Part shown: piece by piece, positions 7,014-64,000 of the stretch
How positions within the stretch are numbered: the stretch's first letter is position 1
Layout: each line of letters starts with the position of its first letter
NCBI GenBank assembly: GCA_043772795.1
Contig: JAYVFX010001253.1
Coordinates: 1,448 to 65,447 of the forward strand
Direction: 5' to 3'
Source of the DNA: Deltaproteobacteria bacterium
GTDB lineage: Bacteria; Desulfobacterota; Binatia; Bin18
DNA: 64,000 nt
Translations under genes and position numbers: made by a program
Notes under the pieces: model-generated
Databases searched by the model: none
What the model saw: only the letters and a program-made list of their open reading frames with translations
Told to the model about the DNA's origin: nothing

Positions 7014-7133
7014 TCGCAGTTCACTGCTTGTGGGATAGAAGCTCTGGGTTGTTAGTCGATCACCCGGTTGGCCTAGCCTCCTATCTTCTATTCCACAAGC
7101 AACCCACCTCACCGTCCAGCGAGGACATTTCAA

Positions 7134-35333: not shown

Positions 35334-35923
35334 GGGATTATTCCCCGGTATCCCTCAAGGTAGCAGAGGATGCTGTCCGCACCCTATTATGCTTCATTGG
35401 CGAAAACCCTGATAGAGAAGGGTTAGTTGAGACGCCCATGCGTTTCCTAAAGGCTTGGGACGAGTGGGCTGCGGGGTATGAAAAGGACCCTCTCCGAATT
35501 CTCAAGACCTTCGTCGACGGTGCCGAGAACTGCGACGAAATGGTGATTGTGACCAACATACCAATCATCAGCAAGTGCGAACATCACCTTGCGGATATTA
35601 CCGGCTGGGCGCACGTCGGTTATATTCCTAATGGCAAGATTGTCGGACTCTCCAAACTGGCGCGCATAGTGGATCTCTATGCCCGACGTCTACAGGTTCA
35701 GGAGCGTCTAACAAACCAAATTGCCGATGCCTTGGTTGAGGGTCTAGCTCCCAAGGGAGTTGGGGTTGTCGTGAAGGCCACACACGCCTGCATGTCCAGT
35801 AGAGGCGTTGGCATTCAAGGTGCTCTCACAATTACATCCGCCATGCGTGGCGCGCTGCTTGAAAAGCCGGCAGCCCGTGCCGAGTTCCTATCACTGTGTG
35901 AATCTGCGGAGAGACAAAAGTGA
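35315..35923 (+). CDS. folE: GTP cyclohydrolase I
   Basis: ETPMRF..., zinc-site [43 protein letters not shown] motifs. Confidence 0.8.
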
Positions 35924-36077
35924 ACAAGTCTCTCTTTACAGGACGGGACGGTGAGACGCAAAAAGGCGGTTTCTTAAAGTCCGGCGAGTGCAAGCACTGT
36001 CACACAGTCAAGACACAGGTCCAGTTCTGGCACCTGTGGTGGTGTCCACTAATCAAGTTCATGAGGGTTCTAGACTG

Positions 36078-36581
36078 ATGCACACCTGTTTGATATCACG
36101 GGAAATTGGCATAGACATGGGTCACCGCGTGACCCATCATGAGGGCAAGTGCAAGAACCTGCACGGCCACCGCTATACCATTCAGGTTACTTTGGAGGGG
36201 TCCGTTGCCTCCAAGGGATCACAAGATGGTATGGTCCTGGATTTTGGGTTCTTAAAGGAACTCATGATGGACCTGATCGATGCCCCATGCGATCACGGCA
36301 CCTGCCTGTGGGTAGATGACCATGAACTCGCCCACGCTCTTGGACCCGGCTATGGGGGCGCGCGTAAGCAAGTCCTCGCAAACGGGTATGCTCTGACTCA
36401 ATGGGTGTGGGGCAAGCTGTATGTTCTAGACCGCGTACCCACGGCGGAGAATCTCGCCTACCACTGGTACTGTCGACTGGCGGAGCCCGTAGTAGAGCGT
36501 AGCCACGGCCGTGCCCGTATCCAGTCTATCAAGGTCTGGGAGACCCCGAACTGTTCTGCGGAATACAAACCCGGTCACTGA
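36078..36581 (+). CDS. queD: 6-carboxy-5,6,7,8-tetrahydropterin synthase QueD
   Basis: HH...CKNLHGHRY (CxxxHGH) PTPS/QueD signature; aligns to the E. coli QueD N-terminus from ATG 36078. Confidence 0.75.
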   Translation: MHTCLISREIGIDMGHRVTHHEGKCKNLHGHRYTIQVTLEGSVASKGSQDGMVLDFGFLKELMMDLIDAPCDHGTCLWVDDHELAHALGPGYGGARKQVLANGYALTQWVWGKLYVLDRVPTAENLAYHWYCRLAEPVVERSHGRARIQSIKVWETPNCSAEYKPGH

Positions 36582-36597
36582 TTTCCAACAGGTTATG

Positions 36598-36960
36598 AAC
36601 ACAGTGAACATTTTCCGTTCCAGACTCACCGTCGTTGCTGATAATAGCACGCCGGGGTCTAGTGGTCGGCTTTGTCTTCAACTCCCGGAGGAGATGGCCG
36701 GGTATGTTGGCCAGCGGATGAAGACCGTGGGCAGTTTCGGCAAGGACGGGGCGGTCATGTTTATCGTATCTGGAGAGGGACTGAAGGTAACGGCAAATCA
36801 CCAGATCTGGTTCAAGAATGGTGTACGTGACCACAATGTCCGGGAGAACTGGAAGAACGTGGTGTACATCCTTGAACAAAATCTCTTTGTGGTCACGATG
36901 TACGTGAAGATGGATACACCTGTTCCCGATTTGCCACCAGTGCAGGAGACATTGTTTTAA
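36598..36960 (+). CDS. hypothetical protein
   Basis: Internal ATG of table ORF 36511..36960. Confidence 0.25.
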   Translation, partial: NTVNIFRSRLTVVADNSTPGSSGRLCLQLPEEMAGYVGQRMKTVGSFGKDGAVMFIVSGEGLKVTANHQIWFKNGVRDHNVRENWKNVVYILEQNLFVVTMYVKMDTPVPDLPPVQETLF

Positions 36961-37244
36961 TGCCACGACAAATTAAGCCATTTGAAGCCTATGGCATAAC
37001 GAGAACTCCTATGGGCGTAATCCATATTCTTCCAGTGGGACAGCAATCTGTTCTCTGCCGTAACAAGTCTCAGTCTTTAGGTACTTGGACTCAACCATCA
37101 GTGAGCTTGAAGTGGGATAAAGTTTCCTCCGTTGTAAACTGTGAAGAGTGCGCGAAAGAGCATATAAGGTATATTCGGCAGCAAAGGATAGATGCTCATA
37201 ATGCATACCGCAGACGTGTTCGAAAAGACAGAAATTGGAAGTAG
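36960..37244 (+). CDS. hypothetical small Cys-containing protein
   Basis: 94 aa; C..C...CEEC pattern. Confidence 0.25.
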   Translation: MPRQIKPFEAYGITRTPMGVIHILPVGQQSVLCRNKSQSLGTWTQPSVSLKWDKVSSVVNCEECAKEHIRYIRQQRIDAHNAYRRRVRKDRNWK

Positions 37245-38159
37245 ATGAAAATCTACTTAGCAGGTGAGCGTGAGGGTTCCCGGAATGATACCATCAATAT
37301 TTGGCGCAATGCCAAACGTCGGTTGTTCTCCTATTATTATCACGGATATAAGACGGGTGGTACACCGTCTCAGCATATAGAAGGCGCTCGGACGATGGAT
37401 CTCGAATTGTTTCTTGACAGTGGGGCATTCACGGCGTTTACAAAGAAGGAGCAAATTCCAGTGGAGAATTATGCCAACTTCGTCAAGGAAACGGAAGGCT
37501 ACTGGTCGGTCTGCTCATCACTTGACGTTATTGGAAGTGGAGAAGCGGCTGCTGCAGCTTCGTACAATGTCTTCAAGCAGTTACGGGGATTGGGTGCTGA
37601 TGTTATCCCAGTTTTTCACGTCAGAGAACCTGACCACTGGCTACAAAGATATATCGACGAGGGCTATGATTATGTGGCCATCGGAGGTATGGTTCCGGAG
37701 TCTACGTCGTGGCTAATGGACCGGCTGGATCACCTGTGGGGGATGGTAATGACCAACCCCAACGGGAGCCCCAAGATCAAGACGCACGGATTCGGATTAA
37801 CCGTGTTTTCCTTGATGTTCCGTTATCCGTGGTTCTCCGTAGACTCGACCTCGTGGTTAATGACGGGCGTCTATGGGGCCTGTGTGCTCCCTACGTCAGC
37901 CGGCATCAAGCGCGTGTTCTTTTCGGAGCAATCACCACAAGCAAGGAAGCTCGATGGCTGGCATTACCATGCCTTAACACTAGTACCCGACGATCCTCGG
38001 AAAGCCTTAGTCGATTCAGTGCTCGAGAAATACGGCGTCACTGCGGCCCAGTGTGGTGAGACCTATCAGTATAGGGATATGGTCAATGCGGCGGTCTACC
38101 AAGACCTAGAGTCCATGGGCGTGAACGAGTTTCACATCCGGCAGGAGACGCTGTTCTAG
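37245..38159 (+). CDS. dpdA: DpdA-like DNA-guanine transglycosylase (TGT family)
   Basis: MKIYLAGER..., FLDSGAFTAF catalytic-Asp region, HGFG; embedded in the queC/folE/queD/queE cluster. Confidence 0.55.
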   Translation: MKIYLAGEREGSRNDTINIWRNAKRRLFSYYYHGYKTGGTPSQHIEGARTMDLELFLDSGAFTAFTKKEQIPVENYANFVKETEGYWSVCSSLDVIGSGEAAAAASYNVFKQLRGLGADVIPVFHVREPDHWLQRYIDEGYDYVAIGGMVPESTSWLMDRLDHLWGMVMTNPNGSPKIKTHGFGLTVFSLMFRYPWFSVDSTSWLMTGVYGACVLPTSAGIKRVFFSEQSPQARKLDGWHYHALTLVPDDPRKALVDSVLEKYGVTAAQCGETYQYRDMVNAAVYQDLESMGVNEFHIRQETLF

Positions 38160-38575
38160 TGAAAACTGTTTACCTTGCTGGCCCAATCGCCGGCTGCACG
38201 GATGAGGAAAACTACGGCTGGCGCCGCGAGGTCAAACTCAAGCTCCGGGATCAGCTCCGATTCCTGGATCCCACGGACCGAGACTACCGTGGCTATGACC
38301 GTCATACTGGTGCTGGTCTCATGCGACCGGAAGATTGCACCAAGCTCGTAGAGGACGATATTGCCGATATTAAGGCATGCGACATCATGTTCGCGTATGC
38401 GTGGAAAACATCTACGGGAACGTCGATGGAGTATGTCTACGCCAGGAAATATCTCAAGATCGTTGTGTCTGTGTGCCCGGAACAATACATTAGTCCTTGG
38501 ATCCAGTACCACTCGGACTATGTAGTTAAGGGCCTTCGGGAAGGTATATCGGTTCTTTTTGATCTTAATTTCTAA
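38159..38575 (+). CDS. nucleoside 2-deoxyribosyltransferase-like protein
   Basis: GTG start; VYLAGPI motif characteristic of the NDT/Rcl fold. Confidence 0.45.
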   Translation: MKTVYLAGPIAGCTDEENYGWRREVKLKLRDQLRFLDPTDRDYRGYDRHTGAGLMRPEDCTKLVEDDIADIKACDIMFAYAWKTSTGTSMEYVYARKYLKIVVSVCPEQYISPWIQYHSDYVVKGLREGISVLFDLNF

Positions 38576-39579
38576 TGGCCACCATCAAAGATTGTGATCT
38601 CCTGGCCCGCGTTAAGTGGATTACTGATGCGGTATCCAGTACTAACCTTGGGTTGCCAGCGCTTCATAGCTACCTTATCCGTGGCGGTAATATCCATGCA
38701 ACTGACGGTCGGATGGTGGTGGGTACACCATTTCCCTTCGAGGGTGATGTACTGGTGCCCGCCAAAGAATTCGAGCGGGTACTTGCTAACCGTCCCGATG
38801 GCGACTTCTCTTGGGAATTCGAAACAGACCGAATTGTTCTTAAACGAGGCCGCTTTCGCGGACGCATTAAAACATTATCAACTGAAGCATGGGTCTATCC
38901 CACTAGTCTTCCCGACGGTCTTTCTGATCTCCCCGAAGGTCTTATAGAGTCATTGCGGTGTCTCCTCCCCTTTTGCTCCGAAAACGCGACAAAGCCGTGG
39001 GCCACTTGTATCGGCATCATCGGTCCCTACCTGTACGCCTCCAATAACATCGTCGTAGCCCGGACTCGCTGCACGACTGGGCTAGCAGTCCCTGAATTCC
39101 TCCTACCACGGTGGGCGGCAGAGTTTGTAGTCAAGAGAGAGGAGGGTCTGGTGGCGTGGGCTTGTGAAGATACCAAGGCTACGTTCATGTGGGAGGACGG
39201 GTCTTGGATGCGGAGCAACCTAGTTGACGCTCAGTACCCACCTGTTCAGAAAGTTCTGGACGCTCATTTTAAAGGCGACATAGATGTTGAGATTACTGAT
39301 GCGTGGCGCAAGACAGTTCTTCGTGTCGGTCGTACTACAGAGGACCCCGTCATTAGGCTTCGCGCTGACGAGGTGCGTGGTGCTAATGGTGAAGTTCTTT
39401 CTGTTGAAGATGAGGCAGGTACGCCTTGCCCAGAGGGACTCGAAGAAACAGTTTGGGATCTTCGCTACCTTGAGGACGTTATTAAGATCGCCACTCATTG
39501 GAATCCCCGGACCTACCCCGCCCCCGCCCCGTGGCGAGGAGAGTGGGTCGAAGGAATCATAGCGGCACGCCGCGATTAA
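38575..39579 (+). CDS. DnaN-like DNA polymerase sliding clamp (putative)
   Basis: N-terminal pattern parallels beta-clamp domain I (LL..V..AV....P.L....L.......ATDG...V...........VLVPAKEF..VL..LPDG); 334 aa. Confidence 0.45.
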   Translation: MATIKDCDLLARVKWITDAVSSTNLGLPALHSYLIRGGNIHATDGRMVVGTPFPFEGDVLVPAKEFERVLANRPDGDFSWEFETDRIVLKRGRFRGRIKTLSTEAWVYPTSLPDGLSDLPEGLIESLRCLLPFCSENATKPWATCIGIIGPYLYASNNIVVARTRCTTGLAVPEFLLPRWAAEFVVKREEGLVAWACEDTKATFMWEDGSWMRSNLVDAQYPPVQKVLDAHFKGDIDVEITDAWRKTVLRVGRTTEDPVIRLRADEVRGANGEVLSVEDEAGTPCPEGLEETVWDLRYLEDVIKIATHWNPRTYPAPAPWRGEWVEGIIAARRD

Positions 39580-39581
39580 TG

Positions 39582-39827
39582 CCCATGATAGAAGAATCTA
39601 GATGCTTGGCATGTAATGTCAAGTTTCTTTGGGATCCAGCCAAAGAAGCAAAAGCCGCAAGACTTCTCTGTTCCGGGGACTGGGAAGGCATGCGCAAGTA
39701 TTATGTGAAACATGGCTTCGTGATTACGGGCCAGCGGTACTTTGACGACCATGTCTGGAACTACCTCACCCACCTAGAGGCCATGAGGCGGAAAAATGTT
39801 CGGGCAGAATCCAGTAGCAAAGAATGA
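39582..39827 (+). CDS. hypothetical protein
   Basis: Internal ATG of table ORF 39498..39827. Confidence 0.2.
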   Translation, partial: PMIEESRCLACNVKFLWDPAKEAKAARLLCSGDWEGMRKYYVKHGFVITGQRYFDDHVWNYLTHLEAMRRKNVRAESSSKE

Positions 39828-40503
39828 GATAACTGGCGACGGCCTTGAACTTCGGGTCGTTAACGGGGCACCGTGGTACACCTTGCAGGGCGAGGGACCA
39901 TTCGCCGGGGATGGTGCGGTCTTTCTACGCCTACATGGGTGCCCGTTGCGGTGTTTCTTCTGTGATACTGAATTCAGCAACCCAGCGGACCCCGTGGTCA
40001 ATGTTGGGGATCTTGCGGACATGATTGAGGCGGCGGCTCCCGGTTGGTGCAAGCTACTCGTCATCACCGGAGGGGAACCTGTGCGGCAGAATCTCGCCCC
40101 GTTGATCAACATTATGATCCGGGACGGGTGGACGGTACAGATTGAAACCTCTGGCATTCTGTGGCAAGATTGTCTTACGGATACAGTCATTATCTGTTCC
40201 CCCAAGACTCCTACAATCCACGAAAAGATTCGTGTCCACGCCCACGGGTTCAAGTACGTGATACAAGCAGGACATGTGGACGATGAAGATGGACTACCAC
40301 TGACCAATACTCAGGATGAGGGTGGGAAGACACATCGGTTAGCCCGTCCAAAGCCGGGGACACTGGTTCCGATATATCTGAGTCCCATGGATGAGTGTGA
40401 TCGAATCGCCAATGAGGCGAACATGGCCGAAGTCGGACGCATTGCCATGAAATACGGGTACCGAGCTGGCGTCCAGCTCCACAAGTTGATGGGGTTGCCG
40501 TGA
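39796..40503 (+). CDS. queE: 7-carboxy-7-deazaguanine synthase QueE (radical SAM)
   Basis: TLQGEG...FLRLHGCPLRCFFCDT (Cx3Cx2C radical-SAM cluster in QueE context). Confidence 0.75.
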   Translation: MFGQNPVAKNEITGDGLELRVVNGAPWYTLQGEGPFAGDGAVFLRLHGCPLRCFFCDTEFSNPADPVVNVGDLADMIEAAAPGWCKLLVITGGEPVRQNLAPLINIMIRDGWTVQIETSGILWQDCLTDTVIICSPKTPTIHEKIRVHAHGFKYVIQAGHVDDEDGLPLTNTQDEGGKTHRLARPKPGTLVPIYLSPMDECDRIANEANMAEVGRIAMKYGYRAGVQLHKLMGLP

Positions 40504-55469: not shown

Positions 55470-55934
55470 TTACGGCCGGGAGTGAAGGAGAGGAACCCAC
55501 CAAGCCGCGAGGCATCCGACGAACACGGCGCCGGCTGCCGCGACGTTCCGCTCCGCGATCAACCCGAAGATGACGCACGTCATGGCTAGGGCGAAGTCAA
55601 CAAGGAAGTCGCTCACCTTATCCTCTATGCCGTAGACTGTCAGGTCGCCGTGGATCGGGGTGATGATGTAGATCGTTCTGAGCACGATGTAGAATCCGAA
55701 CCCGCCGACGAGCGCGGCCCCGCTCGGCGTGATGCTCCACCAAAGGTTCCCGATCGCGAACGCGAGCCACGCGATCCCGCTGCTCGTCAGCACTTTCAGC
55801 GCGTGCTGGAACCAGACCGGCGCCGTGACTGGCCCGTCCGTGGCCATGCTGCGGAGTTTTTCCATTCGAGTCATGTCTGATACCTTTGAATGTAACCAGC
55901 GGATGTGAGATTGATGCACTGAAGAATTTCCCAA
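55470..55934 (-). CDS. multi-pass membrane protein
   Basis: 3-4 predicted hydrophobic helices. Confidence 0.3.
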   Translation of the reverse strand: MGNSSVHQSHIRWLHSKVSDMTRMEKLRSMATDGPVTAPVWFQHALKVLTSSGIAWLAFAIGNLWWSITPSGAALVGGFGFYIVLRTIYIITPIHGDLTVYGIEDKVSDFLVDFALAMTCVIFGLIAERNVAAAGAVFVGCLAAWWVPLLHSRP

Positions 55935-56401
55935 CCGGGAACATTCAGTGCGGCCGCCAGAATCTGGGCATTCCTGCGAACTTCCGATATACCGTGGCGA
56001 CGCACTGCACGGTCCACGGCCATAAATATATCGGTAGATGGGCTGGGGTCATGTTCCGTGTCCGCCTCGAAAGATTCCATGCGATCATCATAATCGAGCC
56101 GCCAATCGTCCATGGCGTATTCCTGCCAGTCTGTTTCTGATTCACAATATACATCCCCGTCAAAAACTTCCGACTCATATAGCTCGAGCTGATCAAGATA
56201 GGTATCCAATGCAAACCTCTCAAACTCCTTGGCGGCCTCACGCTTGGCGATCTGGCGCTCGATCTTCTTGTGAAGACGTCGGCTGTTGCGCTTGCTACCG
56301 GAGTTGCGCCGGGAGGAATGGATGTCCCCACCGTGACCGCGGAGGTTCCGCACGGCGCTTTTTGGCGCCGGATTCTCAACACGAATGCCGTAAGGACGCA
56401 T
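55871..56401 (-). CDS. hypothetical protein (basic N-terminus, acidic C-terminal half)
   Basis: 176 aa. Confidence 0.3.
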   Translation of the reverse strand: MRPYGIRVENPAPKSAVRNLRGHGGDIHSSRRNSGSKRNSRRLHKKIERQIAKREAAKEFERFALDTYLDQLELYESEVFDGDVYCESETDWQEYAMDDWRLDYDDRMESFEADTEHDPSPSTDIFMAVDRAVRRHGISEVRRNAQILAAALNVPGWEILQCINLTSAGYIQRYQT

Positions 56402-56495
56402 GTTTCTTGGCTTGTGATTGTTTGAAAACCCATGCCGGGCGATGTGCTCACCGCAGCCCCACCTAGCCCGTGGCCCTGAGCCACGCCGACAAATA

Positions 56496-56550
56496 GGGGT
56501 TGGGGGATTCGAACCCCCGTGCTACCCTTGTGGCTACCCCTACAACCCCC
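56496..56550 (-). ncRNA. tRNA-like minihelix element 1 (acceptor-like stem + T-arm; no D/anticodon arms)
   Basis: RNA GGGGTT-[25 nt]-GGGGG-TTCGAAT-CCCCC-AACCCC-T; canonical T-loop; 55 nt. Confidence 0.45.
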
Positions 56551-56598
56551 GCGGCGGGGTTAGAGGGCGGTTACTCACCCCCTACCCTGCCCGGTGAG

Positions 56599-57135
56599 TT
56601 ACCGCTTCCTGCCGCCCCCGCTCACCACGGCCTTCGCACCACCACCGGCAATGGAACCGGCGACCTGCGAACCACCCGACGCCGACGTGCCGGTGGCAGG
56701 AGTCGTGGCGACCGCGGCCGCAGACGCCGCGGGCTCGACGGCCGGCGCGACCACCGTACCAATGACGGCACCCTTGTCCTTGAACTTGTACACGCGACCA
56801 CGACCCTCGATGTTCGCATTGTGGATCTCACGGCCCGTCGACTTCTGGAGCCGGCTGAACTGGATCTTCACCGTGCTGGACATGCCCTCACGGGTACGGT
56901 CCGGGAACTTGACGACGAGCTTGTCCAAGACCTCCTTCTGGGTCGCACCCTCGGCCGTGTCGATCATCGACTTGATCGTGCCGATGACACCATCCGACCG
57001 CTTCTCGGCACGATCCTTCTTCGCCTGCTCCTTCTCCGCCGCCTTCTTCTCCGCGGCCGCCTTCTTCTCCGCTGCCTTCGCCTCGGTGTTGTTCGCCGGC
57101 GCCGTGGCCATGCCACCCTGCTCGTTGTCCGCCAT
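56599..57135 (-). CDS. histone-H1-like DNA-binding protein, paralog A (Lys/Ala-rich tract + winged-helix-like C-terminal domain)
   Basis: ATG 57135 with AAGGAG ribosome-binding site; AKAAEKKAAAEKKAAEKEQAKK tract; C-terminal domain paralogous to 62309..62854; the in-frame upstream extension to 57510 could instead be a fused N-terminal domain. Confidence 0.4.
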   Translation of the reverse strand: MADNEQGGMATAPANNTEAKAAEKKAAAEKKAAEKEQAKKDRAEKRSDGVIGTIKSMIDTAEGATQKEVLDKLVVKFPDRTREGMSSTVKIQFSRLQKSTGREIHNANIEGRGRVYKFKDKGAVIGTVVAPAVEPAASAAAVATTPATGTSASGGSQVAGSIAGGGAKAVVSGGGRKR

Positions 57136-57562
57136 GTAATGCTCCTTGAACGGAGTAGCGCTCTCTTTAACGAGAGCAATTACGCGATCCCGATTCTCCG
57201 GGGTGTCGGGAAACGCGCCGACCGGGAAGTCCGGGCGGGAGGTGTTCAGTATCTGTCGCAGAACTTCCGCAGGCACATCGTGGGTGTCATCCGTGTGCAG
57301 TAGCACCCGGATGGCAGCCACGGTGCGCATGCGAAGCTGATCGATATCATTCTGATCTTCGATCTTGACGAGCTCGAAGGCGGTGTTGCCGGGCATCTTC
57401 GAGAACAGGATCGCCACACTGGGGAATGGTGGCCTTGGATGGTTGATACTGGAGATTGGAGCGGCGATCGAGTTGTGCATGATACCTGTGTTTGGGGTGG
57501 TTTTGCCCAATGAGGTAAGGTCGCCTCAACCATTACCACCGTCAAGGGGCAATGTGCGGAAA

Positions 57563-57811
57563 TCACCGAAAGATTATTTTCCGTAGTTCCGTGGCTGTCT
57601 TGGCCAAGTCCTGAGCCGCTTTCGCCGGGTCTTTTGTGTCGAAGGTGGCGTGCCATACCACGAGTACAGCATCTGGGTCCAGTCCGCGCTCTTCACGAAC
57701 CTTGGGGCTAATCGTCTCTTTCTTGATGTGCCCCTCGTAGATCCAGATTTCACCCTTAGCGGTGGTTGCCGCCGTGATCGGTACAGCGTCGAGCGTTACT
57801 GCCCGGCTCAC
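57563..57811 (-). CDS. hypothetical protein
   Basis: 82 aa. Confidence 0.25.
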   Translation of the reverse strand: MSRAVTLDAVPITAATTAKGEIWIYEGHIKKETISPKVREERGLDPDAVLVVWHATFDTKDPAKAAQDLAKTATELRKIIFR

Positions 57812-58035
57812 AGCAGCTTCGCCAGCTTGGCAACCTTCGCCATCCGGGCGTTGTAGTTGTTCCGGTGACGTGGGTGAGGACGGCCAACGTCGTCAATCAG
57901 CCGATTGACAACTTTGGTCATCTTCACCCCTCGGGGCGACTTGCACTTCTTGCGCTCACCCTTCTTGACCCGCGCTTTGGGCACGTGGGTCTGCTTGGCG
58001 GGCTTCTTGGTGGTGTTCTTGTCTTTACGCCCCAT
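57808..58035 (-). CDS. small lysine-rich basic protein
   Basis: TAAGGAGAT ribosome-binding site before the ATG; KKPAKQTHVPKARVKKGERKK. Confidence 0.3.
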   Translation of the reverse strand: MGRKDKNTTKKPAKQTHVPKARVKKGERKKCKSPRGVKMTKVVNRLIDDVGRPHPRHRNNYNARMAKVAKLAKLL

Positions 58036-58089
58036 ATCTCCTTACCTGTGTGGGTGACCTAATGTAGTACAAGAATCGGACCCTGCAAT

Positions 58090-58129
58090 GGGGTGGGCAC
58101 GGATTCGAACCGTGCCACGACCGGCACCC
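58090..58129 (-). ncRNA. tRNA-like minihelix element 2
   Basis: RNA GGGTG-CCGGTCGT-GGCACGG-TTCGAAT-CCGTGCC-CACCC-C; the 5' G is the G of the upstream TAG stop codon. Confidence 0.45.
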
Positions 58130-58479
58130 TAGCTGTTCAGATAGTGGTCGGCAGGACCATAGAACAGGTCGAATTGCTTCTGCTCTTCTGTCAGGTCCAT
58201 TTCGGCAGCATCTTGGACCTCACCGTACGCCGACTCGATCGGCGCATTGCAGTGATCACAGTCCATGGGTTCGCCTTCCCAGTAGATGAACTGATCTACG
58301 ATGTGCCACTGTGGGTCGGTGCCGGGCTCTGCGCTGGCTTCGCTGCCGTTCTCACCATTGGCGCACCCGGCACAGATGACAGCGCCGTCCGCAAGCAAGT
58401 ACATAAGCGGGTAGAGACCGGGCCACGAAGAATGTGGCAGCTTCCCATCGCTGAGTCTTTCGAATGTCTTTGGCATCAT
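58129..58479 (-). CDS. hypothetical protein
   Basis: 116 aa, acidic; Cys pairs. Confidence 0.3.
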   Translation of the reverse strand: MMPKTFERLSDGKLPHSSWPGLYPLMYLLADGAVICAGCANGENGSEASAEPGTDPQWHIVDQFIYWEGEPMDCDHCNAPIESAYGEVQDAAEMDLTEEQKQFDLFYGPADHYLNS

Positions 58480-58685
58480 CCTCTCCGGACAGGAAGGATG
58501 GACTGCCAGAATCGAGCCGAGCCGATGTTCGATACGTGTGACGCAGAGATGTCGTAATGATCGGCAATCTCCTGTCGGGGCAGGTCCGCGGTTCTTACGA
58601 GGTGGTAGATATTGATCACCTCGTGGGGGTACAGCTTGTAGTTCTGGAAGTACACCCGGCGGACGTTCAGCTTACGCTTCATCAT
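58476..58685 (-). CDS. small helix-turn-helix DNA-binding protein (sigma region-4 / LuxR-like HTH, putative)
   Basis: RQEIADHYDISASHVSNI helix-turn-helix-like segment. Confidence 0.3.
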   Translation of the reverse strand: MMKRKLNVRRVYFQNYKLYPHEVINIYHLVRTADLPRQEIADHYDISASHVSNIGSARFWQSILPVRRG

Positions 58686-58700
58686 GCCTCCATTGTGGGG

Positions 58701-59201
58701 TTACATGCCTACGTGACGGCAGTTTTCGATCTTGTTCTCTACGCAGAAGGTGCAGCGATCATCCCCTTCGGCCATATCCCAGTCCATATCGTAATCCATC
58801 GATGGGATCTTGGTGTGCTTGGCAAGTTCAAGCATCCGGTCCACTTGCTTGGCTACACCCGCGCGGGTATAAATAGTCTTCATGACCATAACATCGGGCT
58901 CCAGTCCATCAATAGGCTCCACATCCGTCTCCGCCCGCACCGCGTTGTCTTTCACGTGGGTCAGCACATTCAGGGCAAACTGCATGTGCGACATCAGCTG
59001 TAGGCTGGTCATGCGATTCATCGTCACCTCTCGGACGGCACCGCCCGTGTTGGTGATCTGTTCGATGCGCCACCCGCCGCCCTGCCTGTCGAGTTGATAG
59101 GCACCGTTATCTAGCGAGCTGTTGGCTACCCTACCGCCCATCCCGGCAATCAGCCGAGCGAACACCAGCTTTACTTCCTTGTGGCTTATTCTTTTGTCCA
59201 T
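58701..59201 (-). CDS. hypothetical protein
   Basis: Internal ATG 59201 of table ORF 58701..59438. Confidence 0.3.
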   Translation of the reverse strand: MDKRISHKEVKLVFARLIAGMGGRVANSSLDNGAYQLDRQGGGWRIEQITNTGGAVREVTMNRMTSLQLMSHMQFALNVLTHVKDNAVRAETDVEPIDGLEPDVMVMKTIYTRAGVAKQVDRMLELAKHTKIPSMDYDMDWDMAEGDDRCTFCVENKIENCRHVGM

Positions 59202-59404
59202 TGTGACTCTCCGGGGACGACGATTTACTTGAGCTGTTCCAGCGCGTAGTCGACCAGCCCCCGCAGTTGTGTCAGGGCAATGCGGGTCTTGTTGATACTC
59301 ACATCGGCAAGGCGACGGTCTGCCTTGTCTGCTACGACCACAACGCCGCGGAGTGTACGGCGGACATTCTCGAGCTGCGCCTGATTGAGATACACTGTGC
59401 GCCC

Positions 59405-59614
59405 CTAGTAGGCTGTTTCCCGAATGATTTTCGCGCACTGCTCGGGCTCGATGTACAGATTGTGCGCATCCTTGCAGTACCGTTCCTCACGCAGGGTTAG
59501 GTTGCGGCCTAGTAGCCGTCGTACCTCGCGGATGTACTGTTTGAGTGTCATTGTGGGTCCTGTGTGGTGAGGCACTACCCTAAAGGTAGGGTCGGGACCA
59601 CGGTAAGTCAACAT
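59405..59614 (-). CDS. hypothetical protein
   Basis: 69 aa. Confidence 0.25.
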   Translation of the reverse strand: MLTYRGPDPTFRVVPHHTGPTMTLKQYIREVRRLLGRNLTLREERYCKDAHNLYIEPEQCAKIIRETAY

Positions 59615-59620
59615 CAGGTC

Positions 59621-60088
59621 CTACTGGATTTTACCGATCATGGCTTGTAACGACAGCTGCCGCAGCAGGGCAGCCAGTGGTGCCATTGGCACCCAGACGA
59701 TCGAGCGTGGGGCACAGAGCACCCCGTGGAATGGCACCTGTAGATTGGTAAGGTACTCAACCTGATCCGCCGGTGATGGTTGGCACGTACCGGCCGGGTG
59801 CGAATGGATGCTGGGCAAGTCGCCGCAGGTAGGTGGCTTAATGCCACTGGCAGTGCCGCGCGAGGACGTGTCTTCGGTCACACCGGTGATATCGTAGGCG
59901 GTATGCGACTCCGTGCGACGGGCCACATAGGATACGCACCACGTGCGTTCGGTGTTCCCGTACCCCGCCGCTAGCGTGGCGGCAACCTGATCCGGTACGT
60001 TGACAAACGTAACCAGATCCGCAGAGCTTTGCGCCCGGAGGGTGGGGGCTAACATCAGTGCCGTAAAGGCAAGTATGGAATGTCTCAT
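59621..60088 (-). CDS. secreted JAMM/MPN+ motif protein (RadC-like HSHPAG signature)
   Basis: From ATG 60088: MRHSILAFTALMLAPTLRAQ signal peptide; exact HxHx7Sx2D motif (HSHPAGTCQPSPAD) with upstream Glu. Confidence 0.4.
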   Translation of the reverse strand: MRHSILAFTALMLAPTLRAQSSADLVTFVNVPDQVAATLAAGYGNTERTWCVSYVARRTESHTAYDITGVTEDTSSRGTASGIKPPTCGDLPSIHSHPAGTCQPSPADQVEYLTNLQVPFHGVLCAPRSIVWVPMAPLAALLRQLSLQAMIGKIQ

Positions 60089-60369
60089 AATAGAGGGCAG
60101 GTGGGGAGTCGAACCCCACCCACTGACCATCTGCCCTTACCGCAGTTCCTTAATGTACCGTTCGACCCGACCTGCCGCAATGCGCAAGGCACATCGAACT
60201 CGACAGTGTAGTATGGGCCTACCCGGATCATCTGGGCAGTGTTGAGCTCCGGGTACTTTGCTAACAGTTCCCGGACAATCTCTTCCGTGCGGGAACGCCG
60301 CCCGGTACTTGCGAGCATATCCCCGATGGGCGTCAGGGGACCGGGATGCGGCTGATGTTCCGTGCTCAT
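60085..60369 (-). CDS. hypothetical protein whose last ~14 codons overlap tRNA-like element 3
   Basis: ATGA coupling at both start (60369) and stop (60085); no earlier in-frame stop. Confidence 0.3.
   Translation of the reverse strand: MSTEHQPHPGPLTPIGDMLASTGRRSRTEEIVRELLAKYPELNTAQMIRVGPYYTVEFDVPCALRQVGSNGTLRNCGKGRWSVGGVRLPTCPLL
60094..60136 (-). ncRNA. tRNA-like minihelix element 3
   Basis: RNA GGGCAG-ATGGTCAGTG-GTGGGG-TTCGACT-CCCCAC-CTGCCC-T; lies inside the 3' end of ORF 60085..60369 and 5 nt upstream of the JAMM gene ATG. Confidence 0.45.
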
Positions 60370-60617
60370 TTGGCACACTCCCGGCAGGGGCAGGTACCGG
60401 GGATGTGGAAGTTCCAGTTGTTGTAGTCACTGACTGCGCCGTACCCGTTGAATCCAATCTTAACCGGCACACGGAACGTCTGGTCCGGTCCGGGGGTGAT
60501 GCCGCCGTTGACTCGGCAGGTGATGTGCTTAGCTGCCTGCTTTTTGCCTGCTGTGGGCGTGGCGTAGTACACCTCATCCCGATACTTCAGGGTTTCGGCC
60601 TGTTCTTTGGTGATCAT
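60366..60617 (-). CDS. hypothetical protein
   Basis: Internal ATG 60617 of table ORF 60366..60767; 83 aa. Confidence 0.25.
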   Translation of the reverse strand: MITKEQAETLKYRDEVYYATPTAGKKQAAKHITCRVNGGITPGPDQTFRVPVKIGFNGYGAVSDYNNWNFHIPGTCPCRECAK

Positions 60618-60669
60618 AGAACCTGTCCTCATTTGGAGACAGCCACAGGGGCGGAGCGCCTCGTGACAT

Positions 60670-60712
60670 GGGGCTGGGCAGGAGTCGAACCTGCCCACTG
60701 GACCGTCAGCCC
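60670..60712 (-). ncRNA. tRNA-like minihelix element 4
   Basis: RNA GGGCT-GACGGTCCAGT-GGGCAGG-TTCGACT-CCTGCCC-AGCCC-C; the 5' G is the G of the upstream TAG stop. Confidence 0.45.
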
Positions 60713-60963
60713 TACTCGTCGCATAGCTCCGTCCATAGGACCGTGAAGATGGTGGTCTGCCTGACATGCCTGATAGCAGTCAGGGCGCTAAACGTGATGT
60801 CGCCCTCAGCCTCCTGTTCCTTGAGAATCTTGGTGGCGATGTGCGCCACTGCACGGTCGACAGCATCATCTGATCGAAGGTTGCCGGCAAAGGCGTGGGC
60901 TTCCTTGACGTCGGCATGGTCCTGGCCCTCGGTCGCTTGGGATGTTACGATGGTGATCCTCAT
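60712..60963 (-). CDS. hypothetical protein
   Basis: Internal ATG of table ORF 60712..61005. Confidence 0.2.
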   Translation of the reverse strand: MRITIVTSQATEGQDHADVKEAHAFAGNLRSDDAVDRAVAHIATKILKEQEAEGDITFSALTAIRHVRQTTIFTVLWTELCDE

Positions 60964-61346
60964 TACTTGACCTCCTGAAGGATGCTTAAGTTGACTTCGC
61001 CCCAAGCCTGCCAGATCACATACCGTGTTCCATTCTCTAGCGTCAGAGTCATTGACTCATAGACGCCCTTACCCGGCATGCTGTTTGCATTGCCATGTTC
61101 GATATTGACGATCTTGTGCCCCTTCAGGTCCGAGAACGCCACAGATACGGCGCGGTACTTCCGCGTGGGCTCATTCAGAACATCGAGCACGAACACCGGC
61201 AGGGTATGGGGGTTCACCGGCTCGCCTGTCCAGTTATCGATCTGGCGGCATTTCGGCACATGGTGTCTCTCCGTGATACAGGTGCAGTATGGGCACCGCA
61301 CCTTATCACGTAGGTTGCCGGCAGGTACAGCTCGGCGGGTCATCAT
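60963..61346 (-). CDS. hypothetical protein
   Basis: Internal ATG-ATG at 61346 overlapping the stop of the upstream peptide; 127 aa. Confidence 0.3.
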   Translation of the reverse strand: MMTRRAVPAGNLRDKVRCPYCTCITERHHVPKCRQIDNWTGEPVNPHTLPVFVLDVLNEPTRKYRAVSVAFSDLKGHKIVNIEHGNANSMPGKGVYESMTLTLENGTRYVIWQAWGEVNLSILQEVK

Positions 61347-61510
61347 CGCCCCCGAATGCCGGCATTGTACGCCAACAGAAACCAGCACATCGCGATCATC
61401 CAGAGCATGAAGCCCATGTACGGCAGGGCCGCCATGAGCAGGTTGCCGCCCCACATGAACGATAGGCCGAAGCCCGTGAACCCAATGGACAGCACAACTC
61501 GCCGGAACAT
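61343..61510 (-). CDS. small two-TM membrane peptide (55 aa)
   Basis: Not in the ORF track; MFRRVVLSIGFTGFGLSFMWGGNLLMAALPYMGFMLWMIAMCWFLLAYNAGIRGR. Confidence 0.25.
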   Translation of the reverse strand: MFRRVVLSIGFTGFGLSFMWGGNLLMAALPYMGFMLWMIAMCWFLLAYNAGIRGR

Positions 61511-61556
61511 ATGAACCTCCTAGGTGGATGCCGGTGCCCCCGGCAGGGTTAGACAT

Positions 61557-61599
61557 GGGGCGGGCAGGGAGTCGGACCCTGCCACATGACCATCCGCCC
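61557..61599 (-). ncRNA. tRNA-like minihelix element 5
   Basis: RNA GGGCG-GATGGTCATGT-GGCAGGG-TCCGACT-CCCTGCC-CGCCC-C; begins 1 nt after the upstream TAA stop. Confidence 0.4.
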
Positions 61600-61600
61600 T

Positions 61601-61876
61601 TTACAGGTCCTGCTCGCCGACCATGCGCATCAGTTGAAAGTACCTGATTTTGACGTTGGTGCTGGGGTCGGTGGGCGTGTGGCGGACCATGATGTACGCT
61701 GCCTCATCCTCACCCTCGCCCTCATAGAATGGGTAGGACGTGACCAGCACCGTCTGTCCGGTAATGGTGACGACCAGCTTGCCCGGCACGAACTGCAGAC
61801 TGAGTGAGTCTTGCTTGAGCTCGGCGGCAGTGTTCGGGAAGTGCCGGGAGACGAGACGTTCGTTGGTCACGGTCAT
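61601..61876 (-). CDS. hypothetical protein
   Basis: Internal ATG of table ORF 61601..61942. Confidence 0.25.
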   Translation of the reverse strand: MTVTNERLVSRHFPNTAAELKQDSLSLQFVPGKLVVTITGQTVLVTSYPFYEGEGEDEAAYIMVRHTPTDPSTNVKIRYFQLMRMVGEQDL

Positions 61877-62000
61877 GCCCTCAGGAGGGTGGTGAGCCGC
61901 ACGTCGATGATGATCGCGGGCGAGTTGTGGTCGTTGCCCCACGCGGCAGCTATGATAGCGGTGGCGGTGGCGAACTGTTCTGGGGTGAGGTGGTGGCAGG

Positions 62001-62150
62001 TCATGGGTTGTGGTACTCCATGCCGCCCATCGTGATGATCACGCCGACCCCGGCGTGATACCGTGCGCGGTGGCTGGGCAGTACGTGATCGCACTGCGGG
62101 CAGCAGTGCACTGCCGGACCGAACAGCCAGTCCATGAGCTTGGCAAGCAT
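62001..62150 (-). CDS. small Cys-His protein (49 aa)
   Basis: MLAKLMDWLFGPAVHCCPQCDH...; ATGA coupling to the downstream ORF; C-terminal in-frame part of table ORF 62001..62912. Confidence 0.2.
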   Translation of the reverse strand: MLAKLMDWLFGPAVHCCPQCDHVLPSHRARYHAGVGVIITMGGMEYHNP

Positions 62151-62308
62151 TGTGGGCCGTACCTGTGTGCTAGCCGGGCACCATTGTCCGGCAGGGGCTG
62201 GGCACGGGGTTGCACCGTGCGTGTTACCTACGCCAGCCGAGACAGTAGTACCGGGGCCGGTGGTGGGGTGACCTTCCCCCCACCCCAGCCCCTGTGCTAC
62301 TGGGTTAC

Positions 62309-62854
62309 TTACCTGCCAGCGCGAGCTGCGGCGCGGCGGGCTGCCTTGCCGGTCAGCTCGACCGGCGCCGCCACCTCTGCCGTCTCGATCTGCTCCGCCT
62401 GCACCACTGGCTCGGTCACCGCGGCCGGGGTCGCCTCCACCACCACCGCCGGGCGAACCAGCACCTTTTCGAACCCGTACACCCGGCCGCGGGTGATGTG
62501 CTTGTAGTTGCCGATCGCCCCGCCAACCTTGGCGAGCCGGCTGAACTGGATTCCCACCGTAACTGCCATGCCCAGCGGGTCGCGGGTGGGGAACTTCACG
62601 GTGAGCACATCGAGCACTTCCTTGCGGGTGGCGCCGGTGGGCTGCTCGAGCATGGAACGGATCGTTCCGATCACACCGTCCGCGCGCTTGGCGGCGTTGG
62701 CAACCTTGCGGGCATTCTTCTCGGTCGCCTTGGCGGCACGCTTGGCACGCCGGTCGGCATCGAGCAGTTCCTGCTTGCTGGGGGCGGGGGCGGCGGTCAC
62801 TTCGACCTGCGCGTGGGTCTCGGTCGTCTCGACCGGCAGGGTGTTGGTTTCCAT
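62309..62854 (-). CDS. histone-H1-like DNA-binding protein, paralog B
   Basis: ATG 62854; basic RRAKRAAKATEKNARKVANAAKR tract; DGVIGTIRSM...EVLDVLTVKFP...QFSRLAKVGGAIGNYKHITRGRVYGF paralogous to 56599..57135. Confidence 0.4.
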   Translation of the reverse strand: METNTLPVETTETHAQVEVTAAPAPSKQELLDADRRAKRAAKATEKNARKVANAAKRADGVIGTIRSMLEQPTGATRKEVLDVLTVKFPTRDPLGMAVTVGIQFSRLAKVGGAIGNYKHITRGRVYGFEKVLVRPAVVVEATPAAVTEPVVQAEQIETAEVAAPVELTGKAARRAAARAGR

Positions 62855-62912
62855 TGTATACCTTACCTTTGTGATGGTGGTGATACCTGCCCGGTACATT
62901 TGACCGGGGCAA

Positions 62913-62957
62913 ACTGGGTGGGGGATTTGAACCCCCGAAACACCGCCACTTGCCCAG
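62913..62957 (-). ncRNA. tRNA-like minihelix element 6
   Basis: RNA CTGGG-[16 nt]-GGGGG-TTCAAAT-CCCCC-A-CCCAG-T; an alternative ~88-nt fold reaching 63000 is possible. Confidence 0.35.
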
Positions 62958-63068
62958 TACCTACAACTTACCGCATGTACCACAACCTGTCTCCGCCCAG
63001 TGTGACCGCACCCTAGTAGTGTATGTCGCCCAGCACCTCAATTATGAGATACCCGGTGGGGTCTGCGG

Positions 63069-63245
63069 TCATTTTGACCCTGCCAGTATGCGGGCAACGG
63101 TTATCCGGCGGACTTTCCAGGCGGCTACCCGCGCGGCACTACGTTTGGCACACCCTTGGCACACAAAGTCATCCGCACGGTCCAAGTACACTAGGTCCGT
63201 TTCTTGTGTGGGGGCACCGCACCGGGCACATGGGTGTTCAGGCAT
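63069..63245 (-). CDS. small zinc-ribbon protein (58 aa)
   Basis: Not in the ORF track; MPEHPCARCGAP...FVCQGCAKR four-Cys pattern. Confidence 0.2.
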   Translation of the reverse strand: MPEHPCARCGAPTQETDLVYLDRADDFVCQGCAKRSAARVAAWKVRRITVARILAGSK

Positions 63246-63317
63246 TTGTTTCTCCGTAAATGGTTTCCGTACTGTACTGCTAAGGGGTTGGGTGGAGTTG
63301 CACCACTAACCCCGTTA

Positions 63318-63569
63318 CTAAATGCCGGTACCGGAGGGGCAGGTGTCCTCGTGGTAAAACGCATGGGTCACCTTTACCGTATGTTGGTCAGTCATGTCGC
63401 AAAACTGTACATCACCGTCCACTAGGGTAGGGTTCTCGGTCACCTGTACCTTGGCATGGTACCCTAGGGCATAGTAACCGAAGTGTGCTTTGTTCACGTG
63501 TCCACTTGTGTAGTACACACTGCGGTTACCCTCGTCATCGGTCAAAATGGCTATGGTGTACTTTTCCAT
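63318..63569 (-). CDS. hypothetical protein (first gene of the minus-strand block)
   Basis: 83 aa, His/Tyr-rich. Confidence 0.3.
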   Translation of the reverse strand: MEKYTIAILTDDEGNRSVYYTSGHVNKAHFGYYALGYHAKVQVTENPTLVDGDVQFCDMTDQHTVKVTHAFYHEDTCPSGTGI

Positions 63570-64000
63570 GGTGGTAACCCTGTGTGTGGGTGCGGTTGTG
63601 GTGGTGCAGTTGTATACCTATAAAGTACCGAATGTACCACAACCCGACAAGGGTTTTTGTGTCACCGTTACAATTTTCGGTAGCCTAAAGATGTAGTGGG
63701 GTTAATGGGGTATTTGTATACAGAAGGTGAAACAGTGGTGAGGGGTTACCGGACAATGCGACCCCCGCCCTTCCAACCCCTACCACAACCGGAATTTTTT
63801 CATCTACCCACTACCAGCCACGGTCAATTTGACCCATGGACACCCCATTGTATACAAATAACTGTCTCCTTTAGGTGACAGAATGCTGACTGTATACAAA
63901 TAGTGGAGCATTCTAGAGAATGTAAGTGTCCACTCCAGGCGACAGCCGGTGTGCGAAGGTGTCACCACGTTGAGACACCGATGGGTGACGGGGTGTCGCC
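63570..64000. promoter_or_regulatory. intergenic control region with three TGTATACAAATA copies (one inverted) and several GGTGACA/TGTCACC half-sites
   Basis: Copies at about 63711-63722 (inverted), 63849-63860, 63891-63902; partial TGTATACC at 63611; lies upstream of the leftward gene block and, across the window boundary, of the terminase region. Confidence 0.4.

Follow-up and report, generated by a model that had tools for sequence, protein, structure and literature searches.

Anticodon-less minihelices resembling the top half of tRNA at gene ends in a phage operon and in mobile elements, chiefly of Actinomycetota

The window analysed here is a stretch of 64,000 nucleotides from a Deltaproteobacteria bacterium (assembly GCA_043772795.1, contig JAYVFX010001253.1, positions 1,448 to 65,447 of the forward strand) that belongs to a phage genome of roughly 65 kb. 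The right end of this genome is occupied by a leftward, minus-strand operon (55871..63569) of about 22 small genes of unknown function, g1 to g22, which are backed by independent gene calls on the ENA contig and by synteny with the related contigs L125, L126 and L248. A Pfam scan of ten proteins of this early operon found no family, save a weak match to sigma-70 region 4. The operon hosts the elements that are the subject of this work, E1 to E8 (Table 1). Apart from E8, which is degenerate, they combine an acceptor-like stem and a T-arm, as in the top half of a tRNA.

Table 1. Minihelix elements of the window, written 5' to 3' as RNA of the minus strand (5' acceptor-like strand / linker / T-arm / 3' acceptor strand)
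Element	Position	Strand	Parts	Helices (bp)	Relation to genes
E1	56495..56550	(-)	GGGGGUU / 25-nt linker GUAGGGGUAGCCACAAGGGUAGCAC / GGGGG-UUCGAAU-CCCCC / AACCCCU; long-linker subtype	7+5 = 12	downstream of g20 (56599-57480) and of a 13-bp hairpin
E2	58091..58129	(-)	GGGUG / CCGGUCGU / GGCACGG-UUCGAAU-CCGUGCC / CACCC	5+7 = 12	its first nucleotide is also the last of the UAG stop codon that ends g17 (58129-58479)
E3	60094..60137	(-)	(A)GGGCAG / AUGGUCAGUGG / GUGGGG-UUCGACU-CCCCAC / CUGCCC(U)	6+6	within the last 17 codons of g11 (60085-60369 (-))
E4	60671..60712	(-)	GGGCUG / ACGGUCCAGUG / GGCAGG-UUCGACU-CCUGCC / CAGCCC	6+6	its first nucleotide is also the last of the UAG stop codon that ends g9 (60712-60963)
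E5	61558..61599	(-)	GGGCGG / AUGGUCAUGUG / GCAGGG-UCCGACU-CCCUGC / CCGCCC; loop position 55 is C	6+6	starts 2 nt past the UAA stop of g6 (61601-61876)
E6	62913..62958	(-)	ACUGGG / 16-nt linker / GGGGG-UUCAAAU-CCCCC / a / CCCAGU	6+5 plus one-base bulge between the helices	upstream of g3
E7 (additional to the six first reported)	62196..62238	(-)	GGCUGG / CGUAGGUAACAC / GCACGG-UGCAACC-CCGUGC / CCAGCC	6+6 = 12	between g3 and g4
E8 (degenerate; read from sequence)	63284..63313	(-)	GGGGUU-A-GUGG-UGCAACU-CCAC-CC-AACCCC		4 nt after the g1 stop

Six of these elements, E1 to E6, had been pointed out by a sequence-only reading and were found again where it had placed them. Their functional strand is minus, like the coding strand of the region, and on that strand the four parts follow one another in the order given in Table 1. 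The T-arm directly abuts the 3' acceptor strand, as in tRNAs, except for the one-base bulge of E6. The acceptor-like stem has 5–7 bp (the 5–6 bp first reported hold for E2 to E6, E1 having 7), the linker has 8–25 nt and contains GG, and the whole fold covers about 40–55 nt (39–56 nt). Such a linker is too short to hold a D arm and an anticodon arm together. The two helices sum to about 12 bp (11–13 bp in total among the elements of the window), and probably stack coaxially. The T-loop is closed by G53:C61 in each of E1 to E6. The canonical T-arm (G53:C61 with a U54-U55-C56-R57-A58-N-Y loop) is found in E1 to E4 and E6, E5 carrying C55 and E7 G55; it was on relaxing loop position 55 that E7 surfaced. 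E8 has no linker and is reduced to an interrupted plain hairpin.

The description of these elements as acceptor/T-arm minihelices devoid of D and anticodon arms is upheld by folding, by a descriptor scan, by Rfam and by ARAGORN. Minimum free energy (MFE) folds reproduce this architecture for E1 to E6. The single-sequence fold of E7 favours a different structure and, therefore, the support for E7 is comparative. ARAGORN detected neither tRNA nor transfer-messenger RNA (tmRNA) in the whole window, and the elements are not misfolded cloverleaves. When both strands of the 64 kb were scanned with the descriptor, exactly six T-arm hairpins were found, all on the minus strand and within 6.5 kb (56.5–63 kb), five of them abutted by a perfect acceptor stem; for comparison, 0.46 full matches and 2.0 T-arm hairpins were obtained with first-order Markov random sequences. 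The thermodynamic z-scores are weak (-0.5 to -2.1). A chance origin, against which the first reading had argued, is excluded by the combination of motifs, by their clustering and by the comparative data given below, not by stability.

The elements are co-oriented with the genes and usually start 0–11 nt after a stop codon. They had been described as lying between minus-strand genes, which holds for their placement at gene ends and fails for E3: this element is not intergenic but lies inside g11, an open reading frame (ORF) that shares the sequence ATGA, through its stop, with the start of g12. As g11 is similar only to the N-terminal part of a longer gene of L125, itself with an element after it, the overlap of E3 and g11 looks secondary. 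Two other frames at E3 stop just before or at the element, one of them (ending in RVERYIKELR) on a UAA directly 5' of E3, so that a frameshift or a truncated gene is possible at g11.

Several features lie close to the elements. Immediately 5' of E1, the g20 stop codon is overlapped by a plain hairpin that has a stem of 13 bp (56560-56600 (-)), and another hairpin, CCCGGU-CAAAUGU-ACCGGG, is found just 3' of E6 (~62886-62908 (-)); both are conserved in L125 and L126. The gene g3 (62309-62854 (-)) and the C-terminal half of g20 (56599-57135 (-)) are paralogous (about 50% identity, no Pfam family). An element follows each of g3 and g20, and the relatives have two to three homologs in each genome.

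Homologs of g3 are present on metagenomic contigs, and synteny is conserved in four of them, L125, L126, L248 and L249. These relatives carry elements at orthologous positions with compensatory stem changes and conserved loops. The orthologs of E1 (L125 9219-9275, loop UUCAACU; L248 11758-11802, both stems altered) have UUCGAAU or UUCAACU loops. Compensatory acceptor changes distinguish the orthologs or paralogs of E4 (L125 4911, L126 12186, L248 8142/8459); in the E4/E5 type, acceptor position 4 varies between C:G, U-G and U:A, and the element at L126 11711 shares the UCCGACU loop of E5. The orthologs of E6 keep the stems, with a UUCAAAU, UGCAACU or UUCGAAU loop depending on the genome (L125 2966; L126 9903, UGCAACU; L248 6766, UUCGAAU). 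Both stems of E7 have been replaced in a compensatory manner. Its orthologs in L125 and L126, GCAUGG...GGUGGG-UGCAACC-CCCACC-CCAUGC, have exchanged GGCUGG/CCAGCC and GCACGG/CCGUGC; those of L248 (7435-7478) and L249 (9654-9694) have the stems GGUAGG/CCUACC and GCCGGU/ACCGGC, respectively. The loop core is retained (UGCAACC, or UGCAAGC in L249) and the linker is conserved in L125, L126 and L248 and different in L249. Complete elements occupy the position of E8, behind the orthologs of g1, in L125 (2584-2623) and L248 (6418-6456). The elements are densely packed in L248 (seven in 5.4 kb) and L249 (six in 3.1 kb), and both E2 and the segment made of g11 and E3 are absent from L125 and L126.

The first reading had also considered degenerate relics of a former tRNA cluster, which would be functionless. 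The T-arm and acceptor are indeed plainly tRNA-derived in style and phages often carry tRNA clusters. Yet a uniform, paired and compact architecture recurs at many independent loci with compensatory stem changes and a conserved linker, orthologs are retained across diverged relatives, and nothing remains of a D or anticodon arm. Decay of former tRNA genes is therefore rejected as hardly credible.

Other searches for relatives of the phage gave little. Neither megablast nor blastn found any relative of the region among 50,697 phage records, the terminase is less than 30% identical to anything in these records, and scans of IMG/VR with the UvrD helicase and with g3 found none. A more distant relative, L127 (a contig of GCA_040384425.1), has no clear member of the family and a single weak descriptor match. 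Between positions 776 and 7000, most of its larger intergenic gaps are occupied by a two-hairpin repeat that is not tRNA-like, GCAGAGGGC-hairpin-GUAAUGC followed by CCGG-UCCCAAGU-CCGG.

The elements E2 to E5 are members of a much wider family of minihelices of about 41 nt that have a GAYGGUC linker and a UUCGACU loop, with the consensus N6-GAYGGUCNNNG-N6-UUCGACU-N6-N6 followed by R-C. A scan of IMG/VR with the pattern GGTCN{2,5}GNNNNGGTTCGAMTCC found at least 120 loci; among the matches listed, the descriptor recognized 142 minihelices, about 128 of which do not overlap tRNAs predicted by ARAGORN, and 81 distinct minihelices have a linker of 7–13 nt. A covariance model, R1, was built from 42 sequences that include E3, E4 and E5, which score 55.3, 51.4 and 48.5 bits as seed members. 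It matches E2, which was not in the seed, over its full length (23.3 bits, E = 7e-4). On E1 (E = 0.036) and E6 (E = 6.5) it gives a local T-arm match only, and the search with R1 did not find E7. E1, E6 and E7 are thus separate subtypes that have the same architecture with longer or different linkers. Independent members were found by R1 in Mycobacterium phage HINdeR (53.7 bits) and Gordonia phage Morgana (47.8 bits), as well as in L125, L126 and L248.

Selection on the structure is seen in the family as a whole. An initial covariation count (92% paired, double changes at 10 of 12 pairs) used sequences pre-selected for pairing and was therefore superseded by an unbiased test, in which the pattern fixes the linker, the loop and two T-stem pairs and leaves free the acceptor and four of the six T-stem pairs. 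Among 134 distinct genomic matches, 100 are fully paired (six T pairs and the whole acceptor) and 121 have a full acceptor with at most one T-stem mismatch; the chance that nine or more free pairs would all pair is estimated to be well below 1%. The total helix length is 12 bp in 77 of 181 family members, 13 bp in 50 and 11 bp in 29. Both G12 and G13 of the GAYGGUC linker are invariant in 68 sequences and look like a mimic of the D-loop G18G19. The stem is followed by a purine (80%) and then by C (80%), a tail that resembles a discriminator base and C74. The type of linker tracks T-loop position 59 in the family alignment (GGUC with C59, GGUU with U59, GGCA with G59). A pseudoknot between the linker GGUC and the loop GACU was dropped, as this association is not a base-pair covariation; it could reflect a tertiary contact or mere subfamily history.

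In the stems, G-U pairs (78) are more frequent than A-C (32), which indicates that the strand that folds is the sense strand. This bears on the proposal that the elements act as DNA, as sites for structure-specific recombination or priming (comparable to integron attC sites or single-strand origins) that would delimit exchangeable gene cassettes of mosaic mobile elements. The repeats of a gene plus an element do resemble cassette arrays, and the presence of E2 and of g11 with E3 varies among close relatives. The T-arm is also an inverted repeat around a 7-bp spacer, like the core site of a tyrosine recombinase. Nevertheless, free covariation of the arms around a conserved loop is the opposite of what duplex sites bound by proteins show, and the G-U excess points to one folded, transcribed sense strand. 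The tRNA-specific features (T-loop, GG and 12 bp) do not fit such sites either, and no recombinase is evident beside the arrays, so that a DNA-level role appears very improbable.

In phage genomes, the element lies on the gene strand, within the gp83-gp82 gap of HINdeR and the gp130-gp129 gap of Morgana. BLAST also finds it in SWU2, Journey13, Sheen, Phlei, Streptomyces phage Dagobah, Corynebacterium phage StAB and several Gordonia phages. It is unannotated in every GenBank phage record inspected, including those of HINdeR and Morgana, and coding sequences have been annotated over it in Journey13 and Predator. A scan of genomes revealed more than 120 loci, nearly all from Actinomycetota (Streptomyces, Nonomuraea, Streptosporangium, Nocardia, Gordonia, Corynebacterium), some of them multicopy. 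The actinobacterial loci are neighboured by NUDIX, DUF2637 and HTH genes, which we take to be the content of actinomycete integrative and conjugative elements (AICEs) or their like, among them those of Streptomyces and Nonomuraea. The element is also present on AT-rich IMG/VR contigs and is therefore not confined to hosts with a high GC content. Only weak matches were obtained from the plasmids of PLSDB. No family member was found in phiC31, whose early terminators are reportedly devoid of U-tracts. An unannotated tRNA-like sequence lies there between gp13 and gp14 (L252, 31424-31510 (+)), with an acceptor stem, a D arm (GCUC-AGCGGAA-GAGC), a T arm (GCCGG-UUCGAAU-CCGGC) and an aberrantly long anticodon region. 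Mycobacteriophage D29, for which a small RNA has been reported in the 63-64 intergenic region (PMC5712189), has no element.

The link to gene ends is also found across the family. A same-strand open frame of at least 60 codons ends within -40 to +12 nt of the element in 61 of 77 cases, against 14.7 for random expectation and 16 for the opposite strand, and the offsets of the gene ends peak at -7 to -11 and around 0. The next start codon is found 15–50 nt beyond the element, usually with a Shine-Dalgarno sequence, and arrays in which genes and elements alternate occur in L057, L084, L085, L069 and L076.

Since terminators also lie just downstream of stop codons, and since actinobacteria are reported to use hairpins with poor U-tracts, the elements might be factor-dependent or U-tract-less terminators or pause sites placed after individual genes. 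The first reading had set aside simple terminators, and rightly: the elements have neither a U-tract behind them nor T-rich 3' flanks, and a terminator scan gives fewer sites than in shuffled sequences, flagging E3 alone, incidentally and with a weak tail. Elements are present after nearly every gene in the arrays, where the 15–50 nt to the next start leave no room for a promoter, and termination would leave the conservation of the T-loop and of GG unexplained. Terminators of any of these kinds are quite improbable.

The elements did not fall into any other known class of RNA. No Rfam 15 family was matched in the region (E <= 10) or in four family-rich loci (E <= 1), apart from sub-threshold matches to mascRNA-menRNA (RF01684), which score 19.0 bits for E1 and 24.3 bits for family members in L200 and do not reach the gathering score of 42.5. 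No model of the tRNA clan matched at E <= 10, which agrees with the lack of a cloverleaf. The only match to a tmRNA model, beta_tmRNA, is a local match to the T-arm (11.7 bits), and the acceptor stems have no G3:U70. Bacterial Y RNAs (YrlA) gave no Rfam match at E <= 10, and no Ro60-like family was found among the 30 window proteins scanned with Pfam. CCA is not encoded, the 3' flank being R-C-N in the family and C-A-U in the window. An identity as a substrate of AlaRS or HisRS was considered and dropped, as G3:U70 and G-1 are lacking. The motif GGTTCRANYCC of plant mitochondrial t-elements is matched with 0–1 mismatch by E1 to E4 and E6 and with two mismatches by E5, and the position at gene ends is shared as well.

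These plant t-elements (Forner et al. 2007, PMC1920247) are similar in several respects: they occur in mRNA precursors beside coding regions, they combine a GGTTCRANYCC T-arm with an acceptor-like stem, and they can be located at or inside the end of a reading frame. After excision, their RNAs receive a non-templated C or CCA (PMC1920247). However, they are non-canonical cloverleaves of about 74 nt, found in organelles at a few per genome, whereas the elements described here have 39–56 nt, lack the D and anticodon arms, have a GAYGGUC linker, and are multicopy in bacterial mobile elements.

The mascRNA / MEN-beta tRNA-like RNA (RF01684) is likewise a small tRNA-like module in a longer transcript, with a 7-bp acceptor, a D-like segment that contains UGGU and a canonical T-arm, and is the sole Rfam model that gives any full-length alignment. 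In contrast, it is the product of a vertebrate nuclear long non-coding RNA (lncRNA) and keeps a short anticodon-like stem. With 19–24 bits for a gathering score of 42.5, the likeness is an analogy, not homology.

The UUCGACU loop is typical of tmRNA. The tRNA-like domain of tmRNA and the YrlA module (PMC4201824) also have an acceptor stem, a T-arm and a stemless or reduced D-loop that gives GG. Unlike these, the elements of the family have no G3:U70 alanine identity, no mRNA-like or pseudoknot domain and no Ro60-binding helix, and they are multicopy and located at gene ends. In the punctuation of mitochondrial transcripts, tRNA shapes lie between cistrons, co-oriented with the genes and often touching a stop codon, but the marks are functional tRNAs, whereas those described here are anticodon-less mimics in operons of phages, integrative elements and plasmids. 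Finally, repetitive extragenic palindromic (REP) elements and other intergenic stabilizer hairpins are repeated, structured and co-oriented, just after stops in operons. They differ in being plain imperfect palindromes without T-loop, GG linker or 12-bp ruler.

Taken as a whole, these data lead us to favour, tentatively and at somewhat less than even odds, the view that the elements are cis-acting mimics of the top half of tRNA by which mobile elements punctuate or cap their polycistronic mRNA. The roles put forward in the first reading, namely signals for RNase P or tRNase Z, targets of CCA addition and decoys, are all plausible and agree with the data. The following model can be drawn. The acceptor-like helix would be stacked coaxially on the T-arm to form a 12-bp rod capped by the T-loop, on which the GG of the linker would probably dock, like G18/G19 of a D-loop, to build the tRNA elbow. 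The elements would be transcribed within the polycistronic early mRNA and read by host enzymes that gauge the distance from the elbow to the acceptor end, RNase P acting at the 5' edge and RNase Z or exonucleases, plus the CCA-adding enzyme, at the 3' edge. The operon would thus be cut or capped right after a cistron, setting mRNA ends and stabilities segment by segment and possibly releasing a tRNA-like RNA of about 41–55 nt. Such a system would be the counterpart, in bacterial mobile elements, of mitochondrial tRNA punctuation and of plant mitochondrial t-elements.

We infer elbow formation, recognition by these enzymes and cleavage from the T-loop with G53:C61, the GG linker (in an A-Y-G-G-U context), the 12-bp rod and the purine-C tail together with precedents, which is why reading by RNase P, RNase Z and the CCA-adding enzyme is favoured. 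The processing of mascRNA offers one precedent, as this RNA is excised by RNase P and RNase Z and receives CCA. All three enzymes recognize the top half of tRNA by measuring the 12-bp acceptor/T stack (reviewed in PMC4919913). In vitro, RNase P cuts the tRNA-like module embedded in YrlA of Mycobacterium smegmatis, and CCA is added to this module in vivo, so that the actinobacterial RNase P and CCA-adding enzyme act on such modules (PMC4201824). Plant mitochondrial t-elements, whose discovery relied on this same GGTTCRANYCC motif, guide RNase P and RNase Z to cut at the ends of mRNAs, in some cases within a reading frame (PMC1920247). The 30 window proteins scanned with Pfam include no tRNA-related enzyme, which is consistent with a reliance on host factors.

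Several observations weigh against punctuation by tRNA-processing enzymes. In about 20 of 61 cases, the upstream stop codon is overlapped by the element or lies within it (offsets 0 to +8); there, as at E3 within its ORF, cleavage by RNase P would deprive the mRNA of its stop. The sequence does not encode CCA, and RNase Z could be disfavoured by the C that is conserved past the discriminator. At position -1 the elements have A or C, whereas the RNase P of Escherichia coli prefers U. Sister elements at orthologous positions have UGCAAYY loops (G55), and one has decayed to a plain hairpin. The hairpin repeat that L127 has in the same positions is not tRNA-like, and a generic hairpin function may therefore suffice. 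Gene-free tandem arrays in L012 and L042 fit better with free-standing small RNAs than with punctuation.

The generic hairpin function just mentioned could be that of structural insulators or stabilizers at cistron boundaries, which would block PNPase (3'-5') and/or RNase J (5'-3') or the loading of Rho without any need for tRNA enzymes. The decay of one cistron would thus be kept from its neighbour, in a way analogous to REP elements in E. coli operons. The elements are well placed for this role, right after stops and 15–50 nt upstream of the next ribosome-binding site, and their 12-bp rods are rich in GC. Moreover, E8 was retained despite its decay, a different hairpin repeat stands at the equivalent places of L127, and additional plain hairpins flank E1 and E6. 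Yet a plain hairpin would be enough for an insulator, while the T-loop, G53:C61, the GG of the linker and the 12-bp total are conserved across GC contents and hosts, and the stability of the elements is unexceptional for their composition. Insulation alone is consequently regarded as unlikely, though deserving of attention.

Alternatively, the elements could be excised as trans-acting small RNAs of about 41 nt that would titrate or decoy a host factor recognizing the acceptor/T-arm, such as a defence toxin that targets tRNAs (for instance a nucleotidyltransferase of the MenT/AbiE type or an acceptor-stem nuclease), RNase P, the CCA-adding enzyme or TruB/TrmA. The number of copies per genome (7–8 here; 5–6 in L057, L084, L069 and L085) would suit decoys, as would the restriction to mobile elements (phages and the presumed AICE-like elements). 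Tandem elements without intervening genes are found in L012 (6880-7220 (-)) and L042 (1120-1545 (-)), separated by long runs of NNGGC pentamer repeats, and those of L042 flank a tRNA-Ser, in the manner of a tRNA cluster. The stable excised mascRNA provides a precedent, with the reserve that its similarity to the elements is sub-threshold. Against this, most copies are tied to the gene ends of operons rather than to a locus of their own with strong expression, the free variation of the stems means that no particular tRNA identity is mimicked (there is neither G3:U70 nor CCA), and no candidate target was identified. Such decoys are rather improbable.

Punctuation of operons remains our preferred reading. 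In a broader form, which comes close to an even chance, mobile elements, chiefly those of Actinomycetota, would hijack the tRNA maturation of the host with anticodon-less mimics, whether for the punctuation of operons or, as a more radical possibility, to release abundant elbow decoys of about 41 nt against immune effectors that target tRNAs.

Other features of the phage and of its relatives were observed in passing. A cluster at 34494-40503 (+) encodes QueC, GTP cyclohydrolase I (FolE), QueD (PTPS) and a radical-SAM QueE-like protein for 7-deazaguanine (preQ0-type) biosynthesis; because of this cluster, the phage DNA likely carries a 7-deazaguanine modification, and the unassigned ORFs 37245-38159 and 38575-39579 may include a DpdA-like transglycosylase. 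The phage also encodes ThyX, a family-A DNA polymerase, an AEP primase, two UvrD-like helicases and proteins similar to Pam3 gp32-34. The motif CACAGGTA is found 8–12 nt upstream of early-gene starts (55213, 57483, 58043 and 62160 (-)), also in L125 and L126, with six occurrences in the window for 1.8 expected, while L127 has CACAAAGGTAGG in the equivalent place; a role in ribosome binding, as an extended motif, or in regulation is possible. The non-coding right end (63610-63901), which precedes the early operon on its upstream side, contains four copies of a TGTATACA-centred palindrome ((T/C)TGTATACAAAT) that are candidate operator sites. In L084, a sequence upstream of a six-element array (7022-7096 (+)) matches positions 237-308 of bacterial 16S rRNA (27.9 bits, E = 2e-4).

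Elements of this general kind, which serve as tRNA-like signals of processing or punctuation, were already known; what is new here is their minimal form and their setting. The literature was searched with incomplete coverage, also for the loop sequence as such, and no account of elements of this sort in phages or in mobile elements of actinobacteria came to light; an earlier mention is possible. So far, to our knowledge, tRNA-shaped punctuation has been reported for mitochondria and for a few lncRNAs of eukaryotes. Should the proposed processing take place, bacterial mobile elements would also organize their polycistronic mRNA in this way, and RNase P and RNase Z would act as regulators of the expression of phage and conjugative-element genes. 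The family is abundant, and unannotated, in sequenced actinophages, including the culturable HINdeR and Morgana, and in Streptomyces genomes. A family model would improve annotation, avert spurious extensions of ORFs (as in E3/g11, Journey13 and Predator) and offer a testable system. Substrate recognition by the enzymes that process tRNA could also be studied on these elements, as natural RNAs reduced to elbow plus acceptor.

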